From Escherichia coli (GTDB taxonomy: Bacteria > Pseudomonadota > Gammaproteobacteria > Enterobacterales > Enterobacteriaceae), in NCBI RefSeq assembly GCF_003334385.1, contig NZ_QOWN01000055.1: a stretch of 30,907 bases of DNA; one strand, given 5' to 3'. The translations under genes and the position numbers were made by a program. The first letter of the stretch is position 1. Every line of letters begins with the position of its first letter. Below are positions 3,132 through 3,150 of the stretch, in pieces. A model generated the notes under the pieces. That model was not told the DNA's origin and did not search any database. It saw only the letters and a program-made list of their open reading frames with translations.

Positions 3132-3150
3132 TGGTGGTGTACTAGGTATC
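3132..3150 (+). promoter_or_regulatory. Candidate NanR operator (imperfect GGTATA-type hexamer repeats) upstream of nanA
   Basis: TGGTGGTGTActaGGTATC lies ~35 bp upstream of the nanA ATG. The E. coli NanR operator is built from GGTATA repeats; this is an imperfect 2-3 repeat version. Confidence 0.3.

Follow-up and report, generated by a model that had tools for sequence, protein, structure and literature searches.

The 30,907-nucleotide stretch of Escherichia coli DNA considered here (hereafter the window) represents GI-pheV, a genomic island of extraintestinal pathogenic E. coli (ExPEC), and carries a published sialic-acid module that was named nan-9 by Tiwari et al. (2023; PMC10088187) and corresponds to the 'nan module' of GI-pheV (PMC11537424). 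The element of interest lies at positions 3135-3153, directly upstream of the nanA gene of this module, and comparison with related loci shows it to be, with high probability, a genuine binding site for a repressor, namely the nan-9 counterpart of the operator of the regulator NanR. While the module itself is known, this clade-specific, two-hexamer, quasi-palindromic putative NanR operator is new. An identical copy of the surrounding 501 bp (2900-3400) is present in 690 of the 5,426 complete E. coli genomes compared, nearly all of these copies being chromosomal.

Gene content follows RefSeq, which annotates an identical locus; the coordinates were transferred to the window with an offset of 11101. 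This gives the order IS66 elements, a transposase pseudogene, seven same-strand genes running from nanA to a second hydrolase gene, nanR on the opposite strand, nanS, shiF and iucABCD (Table 1). The seven genes are separated by gaps of no more than 49 nt and probably form one operon. The NanA of the island shares 66% identity with that of K-12 and passes the NCBIfam family model. Deletion of nan-9 delays growth on N-acetylneuraminic acid (Neu5Ac) as well as on N-glycolylneuraminic acid (Neu5Gc) (PMC10088187), and the module is thus functional on the two sugars by growth data, which bear on growth rather than directly on regulation.

Positions 3132-3150 read tggtGGTGTActaGGTATC, within which a sequence-only reading of the window had recognised GGTGTA-cta-GGTATC as a likeness of the GGTATA repeats bound by E. 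coli NanR. The two hexamers (3136-3141 and 3145-3150) lie in direct orientation, each matching GGTATA at five of six positions, and the 3 nt between them equal the spacing of the first two repeats in the K-12 operator. The end of the second hexamer is followed by 31 nt and then the nanA start codon. Taken as such, the motif is not distinctive; if up to two mismatches are allowed, the window has four occurrences of the pattern GGTATAN3GGTATA against 1.54 expected (at least four in 5 of 100 shuffles), and a search of the intergenic regions of the module detected exact GGTATA in none of them. With neither the relaxed nor the exact pattern enriched, the bare motif alone proves nothing, and it is its position and conservation that carry the argument.

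With regard to position, a CRP-like site precedes the motif and matches TGTGA-N6-TCACA at nine of ten positions. Counting from the centre of this site, GGTGTA of the island occupies +47 to +52 and GGTATC +56 to +61, which are the exact positions of repeats 1 and 2 in the K-12 nanR-nanA spacer (AGTGAagcagaTCGCA ... tcTGGTATAacaGGTATAaaGGTATA). Among the nanA upstream regions of 65 Enterobacterales loci with a usable motif, the distance from the CRP centre to the first G is 46-48 nt in 64, and it is 47 nt in every locus of the nan-9 type. In approximately 58 canonical Enterobacterales loci this operator slot is occupied by cTGGTATAACAGGTATAAAGGTA. The motif therefore occupies the canonical NanR-operator slot in a promoter of like construction, and the sequence-only reading gains the CRP-like site as a probable part of the same promoter unit.

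Conservation was assessed in relatives of the island NanR, which are rare, with just three further lineages being identified. These are Proteus faecis (NanR 80% identical to that of the island) and two plasmid types of E. coli, namely the contigs L069 and L070 (71%) and IncF plasmids such as pCEC15 (76%). Across the four lineages NanR is thus 71-80% identical and always of the same divergent type, while the NanA proteins of the other three are approximately 70% identical to that of the island, making them about as distant from it as canonical NanA. All four possess the CRP-like site, followed at +46 by TGGTGTACTAGGTAT, then C or A, then C, within flanks that vary. The four-way promoter alignment shows conserved blocks only at the CRP-like site and at 3135-3149, where 15 successive columns are invariant; the single positions 3151, 3153 and 3155 may be added to the latter. 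By comparison, a 900-bp alignment of the nanA coding sequence shows 67-78% DNA identity, only 11% of four-fold degenerate sites invariant and a longest invariant run of 9 nt, which makes the operator the most constrained stretch of the nanA region. The shared register together with this conservation across lineages marks the motif as non-random.

The term 'degenerate', which had been applied to the repeats, proved inappropriate. GGTGTA-CTA-GGTAT is a strictly conserved form specific to the clade, and since the first hexamer and the CTA spacer are fixed, the site is better regarded as a variant consensus than as a product of decay; GGTGTA is also found as the first repeat of the canonical-type operators of Hafnia paralvei and of an IncK plasmid. 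The second hexamer is GGTATC in three of the four lineages. The slot of the canonical third repeat reads ATTATG in the island, ATTATA in pCEC15, AGTGCA in L069 and AATTTT in P. faecis, so a third repeat is not conserved in the clade. In this respect the island site lacks one feature of the NanR operator, albeit one that is not strictly defining; it does have at least two direct GGTATA-type hexamers, a CRP-linked position in a sialic-acid promoter (judged from the predicted start) and a cognate NanR gene nearby. The span of 3132-3150 first proposed includes both hexamers, but its first three positions fall outside the conserved element, as the other lineages differ there and position 3134, G in the window, is A in approximately 37 of 41 island-type gut-metagenome contigs (G in four). 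The element itself extends from 3135 to about 3153.

The lineages were sought by a scan of species-representative genomes, by protein searches with NanR and NanA and by a DNA-pattern scan of metagenomes, which returned nothing beyond sub-variants of the four lineages and three chance matches. As the pattern scan demanded the exact 15-mer and TCACA, only the other positions of the metagenome copies are informative; these show single-nucleotide polymorphisms at the equivalents of 3103, 3134 and 3158, and an ATTATA allele of the third slot occurs among copies of the island. A sub-lineage of pCEC15 has eight polymorphisms in the flanks, none of them in the CRP-like site or in TGGTGTACTAGGTATCCCAT. 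Left out of the comparison were two metagenome-assembled-genome contigs, an error-ridden plasmid assembly and an apparently chimeric scaffold. The two contigs are labelled 'Bacillota bacterium' and 'Collinsella sp.' and are probably mis-binned, as their NanR is 100% identical to that of E. coli nan-9. The scaffold has a 407-aa NanA-like product downstream of a nanR-nanA promoter region of the K-12 type.

Table 1. Features of the nan-9 module and of its predicted regulatory region in the window.
Feature	Position	Strand	Basis or remark
Transposase pseudogene remnant	2666-3064	-	RefSeq annotation; upstream boundary of promoter, 18 nt before CRP-like site
CRP-like site TTTGA-taatct-TCACA, TTTGAtaatctTCACA	3082-3097	+	9/10 vs TGTGA-N6-TCACA; centre 3089.5
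Predicted core promoter: -35-like TTGGAT 3114-3119, 18-nt spacer, extended -10 TGgTGTACT 3135-3143	3114-3143	+	Positional homology with K-12 TGgTATAAC
Putative NanR operator core TGGTGTAC-TAG-GTATCCCA	3135-3153	+	Cross-lineage invariance; canonical register
Slot of canonical third repeat, ATTATG	3153-3158	+	3/6 vs GGTATA
nanA	3182-4099	+	
nanK	4133-5008	+	
Major facilitator superfamily transporter	to 6529	+	
Alpha/beta hydrolase	6533-7363	+	
KdgM-type porin	to 8119	+	
nanM	to 9241	+	
Second alpha/beta hydrolase	9291-10226	+	
Module NanR, GntR/FadR-type regulator, 244 aa	10262-10996	-	NF003011, alignment
nanR-nanS spacer	10997-11092	.	No operator-like site
nanS, sialate O-acetylesterase	11093-12082	+	

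The same 19 nt of the operator core can alternatively be read as an 8-3-8 quasi-palindrome, the arms of which match at six of eight positions; an inverted-repeat search with a 6-nt seed reports none at the island operator. The palindromic form is far more apparent in P. faecis, where the corresponding site, TTGGTGTAC-TAG-GTATACCAA, forms an almost perfect inverted repeat, its arms of 10 nt being 90% complementary and 3 nt apart. Gene order also differs between the lineages. In the island and in P. faecis nanS lies beyond nanR, while in the plasmid types it is found directly upstream of nanA, nanR being divergent from nanS-nanA and the genes that follow, and the second hydrolase gene forming a separate transcription unit. 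Just upstream of this hydrolase gene the plasmid lineages have a second site of the 8-3-8 layout, TGGTATAC-TAA-GCATACCA in pCEC15 (11644-11680) and TGGTATAC-TAA-GCACTCCA in L069 (10711-10729). In pCEC15 it lies within an inverted repeat with 18-nt arms (94%), which finishes 13 nt before the hydrolase start codon and overlaps the ribosome-binding site. The sequence TTGGTATGC-TTA-GTATACCAA at this pCEC15 gene is, like the P. faecis site, an almost perfect inverted repeat with TGGT/ACCA ends. As the second hexamer of this site is only AGCATA (4/6) when read as a direct repeat, the palindrome reading fits it better. The site stands where a separately transcribed hydrolase gene would need one, and in this way it supports the interpretation of the nanA motif as a putative operator. 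A reading of the palindrome as an RNA hairpin is not supported, since the variation of its right arm (GTATACCA, GTATCCCA, GTATCCTA) is not matched by compensating changes in the left arm.

The module encodes its own divergent NanR, as the sequence-only reading had stated, with 52% identity to K-12 NanR and a score of 273 bits against the cut-off of 260 for the NCBIfam model NF003011. Nine DNA-contact residues have been proposed for K-12 NanR, these being Ser33, Glu58, Arg59, Gly68, Arg69, Ser71, Arg73, Asn89 and Glu91 (Horne et al., 2021; PMC8012715). Eight are present in the module protein, which has an identical recognition helix, and the ninth, Asn89, is replaced by lysine (K-12 numbering). 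This replacement is one of three fixed in the wing of the nan-9 clade (N89K, R92K and R94S; NKGEKASV vs NNGERARV), with N66G being fixed also. The N-terminal extension differs in sequence as well as in length; it measures 32 aa in K-12, compared with 24 aa in the island protein and 13 aa in that of P. faecis. In K-12 NanR this extension mediates cooperative dimer assembly. The ligands of Neu5Ac and zinc are kept at Arg128, Asp172, His176, Asn215, Gln221, His244 and Leu245, among which Asp172 and His176 are proposed zinc ligands and Arg128 contacts the carboxylate. As most ligand-contact residues are retained, a sialic-acid effector is likely. There are also pocket changes conserved in the clade (N165P/T, F168Y, R203K, H214N/Q, S218T), and the inducer of the module NanR may be something other than plain Neu5Ac.

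No comparable repeat had been seen between nanR and nanS, and it had been suggested that nanS may be controlled differently. The first point is confirmed and the second is supported. The spacer contains no match to the operator within four mismatches, and neither such a site nor any conserved block was found there across the four lineages; promoter-like matches occur only at consensus level and at chance frequency. Given this, and the location of nanS upstream of the nanA promoter in the plasmid types, nanS falls outside the unit of CRP-like site and operator in every lineage.

Taken together, these observations make it likely that the element is the operator of the nan-9 nanA promoter, bound by the module NanR, repressing the seven-gene operon and released by sialic acid. 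In the model suggested by the sequence comparison, a weak CRP-dependent promoter would use the CRP-like site, a poor -35 element and an extended -10 element contained within the operator, with transcription predicted to start near 3150; this start would put the CRP-like site at about -61.5, a class I position which depends on the start being correct. The module NanR would recognise the pair of hexamers or, in the equivalent palindromic reading, the pair of half-sites, and in doing so would cover the -10 element and the start, repressing the genes from nanA to the second hydrolase sterically. Binding of sialic acid by the C-terminal FCD domain of NanR would then bring about its release. Both nanR and nanS would be outside the control of this operator. 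The transposase remnant ends only 18 nt from the start of the nanA promoter, indicating replacement of all DNA that preceded the CRP-like site. An alternative -10 element, CATTAT (3152-3157), was rejected for lack of a -35 element and of conservation in L069 and P. faecis.

A number of points weigh against this interpretation. With only four deep lineages, the footprint rests on few independent sequences, and as the conserved block overlaps the predicted -10 element, part of its conservation could reflect promoter constraint. A consensus promoter scan found no promoter at 3114-3143, which is explained by TGTACT being devoid of the near-essential A at position 2; such a failure fits an activator-dependent promoter, yet it also weakens the model. 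Lysine in place of the base-reading Asn89 of the wing, together with the shorter N-terminal extension, means that the binding mode may differ from that of K-12 NanR. The published accounts of nan-9 (PMC10088187, PMC11537424) contain no analysis of the regulation of the module.

The first alternative to be considered accepts the operator and disputes that the circuit is private. The chromosomal and the module NanR would bind the site about equally well, with the reverse holding for the chromosomal operators, and nan-9 would be one more operon of the host sialoregulon. The identical recognition helix and the eight shared contacts agree with this, as does the occurrence of a GGTGTA first repeat with an xTA spacer alongside a canonical-type NanR in H. 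paralvei and a canonical-like NanR pseudogene on the plasmid pSTEC2018_166-c, and nanRATEK is present in more than 99% of E. coli (PMC10088187). However, each of the four lineages pairs the variant operator with the variant NanR, and no canonical NanR was returned for P. faecis by the species-representative scan. In addition, the four positions at which the site differs from the canonical core are nearly invariant among the approximately 58 canonical operators, and the regulator has the fixed wing changes and the different N-terminal extension described above. This is the pattern expected of co-evolved specificity, and a shared circuit is considered unlikely, although it is an explanation to be taken seriously.

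A further proposal goes in the opposite direction and is put forward more tentatively still. It holds that the nan-9 NanR and its operator could be a co-evolved and insulated pair, in which the three cooperative dimers on direct repeats have given way to one (or two) on an 8-3-8 palindrome, TGGTrTAC-N3-GyAyaCCA. The wing changes and the shortened N-terminal extension would accompany this switch, and the altered pocket might make the protein respond to a sialic acid other than or besides Neu5Ac, such as Neu5Gc or one that is O-acetylated. Were this to be the case, ExPEC would possess a second circuit for sialic acid, one that is orthogonal to the sialoregulon of the chromosome.

It is improbable that the conserved block is no more than the core promoter, an extended -10 element and start activated by CRP in the absence of any repressor. 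TGgTGTACT does occupy the slot of K-12 TGgTATAAC, and there is conservation both of the CRP-like site and of its distance. Nevertheless, conservation extends 10 nt beyond the -10 slot, through GGTAT.C.A, and TGTACT is a poor -10 element that would not explain strict invariance. In the canonical family this slot has been shown experimentally to be a NanR operator (PMC8012715), and at the hydrolase gene of the plasmid lineages a site of this layout is found without a CRP-like site in the corresponding register. Chance likeness of a functionless sequence to GGTATA repeats, for which the lack of enrichment and the absence of exact intergenic GGTATA might speak, is effectively refuted by the identity of the canonical register and by 15 nt of invariance in the face of saturated synonymous sites.

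Other matches in the window to the 15/16-mer of the operator were rejected as operators. Those at 8227 (nanM), 9752 (second hydrolase) and 15231 have three mismatches each and lie within coding sequence, and that at 22988, also with three mismatches, has no counterpart with which to compare it. The match at 9752 has a counterpart at a similar distance into the pCEC15 hydrolase gene and probably encodes the conserved G-x-S-x-G serine motif of the enzyme. In the 49 nt that separate nanM from the second hydrolase gene, a perfect inverted repeat with 10-nt arms, CAGGTGACTG ... CAGTCACCTG, encloses a loop of 11 nt (9250-9280). It has neither a T-tract nor a match to the operator and could form an RNA stem-loop within the operon. 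As already noted by Tiwari et al. (2023), the module lacks nanE; the P. faecis version additionally lacks nanK. The segment carrying the nan and aerobactin genes has IS66-family elements (tnpA, tnpB, tnpC) on either side, at 149-2520 and 27691-30107.

The value of the result is that promoter, CRP-like site and putative operator of nan-9 are narrowed to approximately 70 bp, with an operator form that is specific to the nan-9 type of NanR. Exact probes and point mutations are now at hand by which a second, insulated ExPEC switch may be told from an extension of the host sialoregulon, and by which the inducing sialic acid may be identified. The natural variants of NanR and operator also bear on how NanR reads DNA, be it as direct repeats or as a palindrome.

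Among known systems the closest is NanR of E. coli K-12, whose (GGTATA)3 operator is found at nanATEK-yhcH, nanCMS and nanXY (Horne et al., 2021; PMC8012715). K-12 NanR also binds a two-repeat operator with a dissociation constant of 25 nM (PMC8012715), so that two repeats suffice. The K-12 nanC and nanX operators share TTGATCTGGTATAACAGGTATAAAGGT, with the third nanC repeat being degenerate (GGTGCA), and hexamers with five of six matches are likewise found in other natural canonical operators, examples being GGTACA in E. albertii and GGTGTA in Hafnia. The island site resembles that of K-12 in its 9-bp hexamer period, in its offset from the CRP-like site, in its overlap with the -10 and start region of nanA and in its linkage to a GntR regulator of the FadR subfamily with the same recognition helix. 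Unlike the K-12 operator, it has no exact GGTATA, its first hexamer is GGTGTA, its spacer is CTA rather than ACA and it lacks a conserved third repeat. The right flank of the island site is CCA, which gives a TGGT...ACCA quasi-palindrome, and its presumed cognate NanR is only 52% identical to that of K-12, with the Asn89Lys change and an N-terminal extension shorter by 8 aa.

Classical operators of the FadR subfamily of GntR regulators are palindromes of the TGGT-N-ACCA type to which one dimer binds. The nanA site of P. faecis and the site at the second hydrolase gene of pCEC15 are similar to these. The island site differs in that its arms match at only six of eight positions, and in that only the right arm is variable, the left one being invariant. 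An intermediate operator, GGTGTAATAGGTATAAAGGTATA, is found in H. paralvei and on the IncK2/Z plasmid pSTEC2018_166-c, where the nanR pseudogene lies beside nanA, nanT, a porin gene and nanM. Like the island site, this operator has GGTGTA as repeat 1, an xTA spacer (ATA in this case) and the same promoter slot; it differs from it in having three repeats and in its association with a canonical-type NanR, which shares approximately 51% identity with that of the island.
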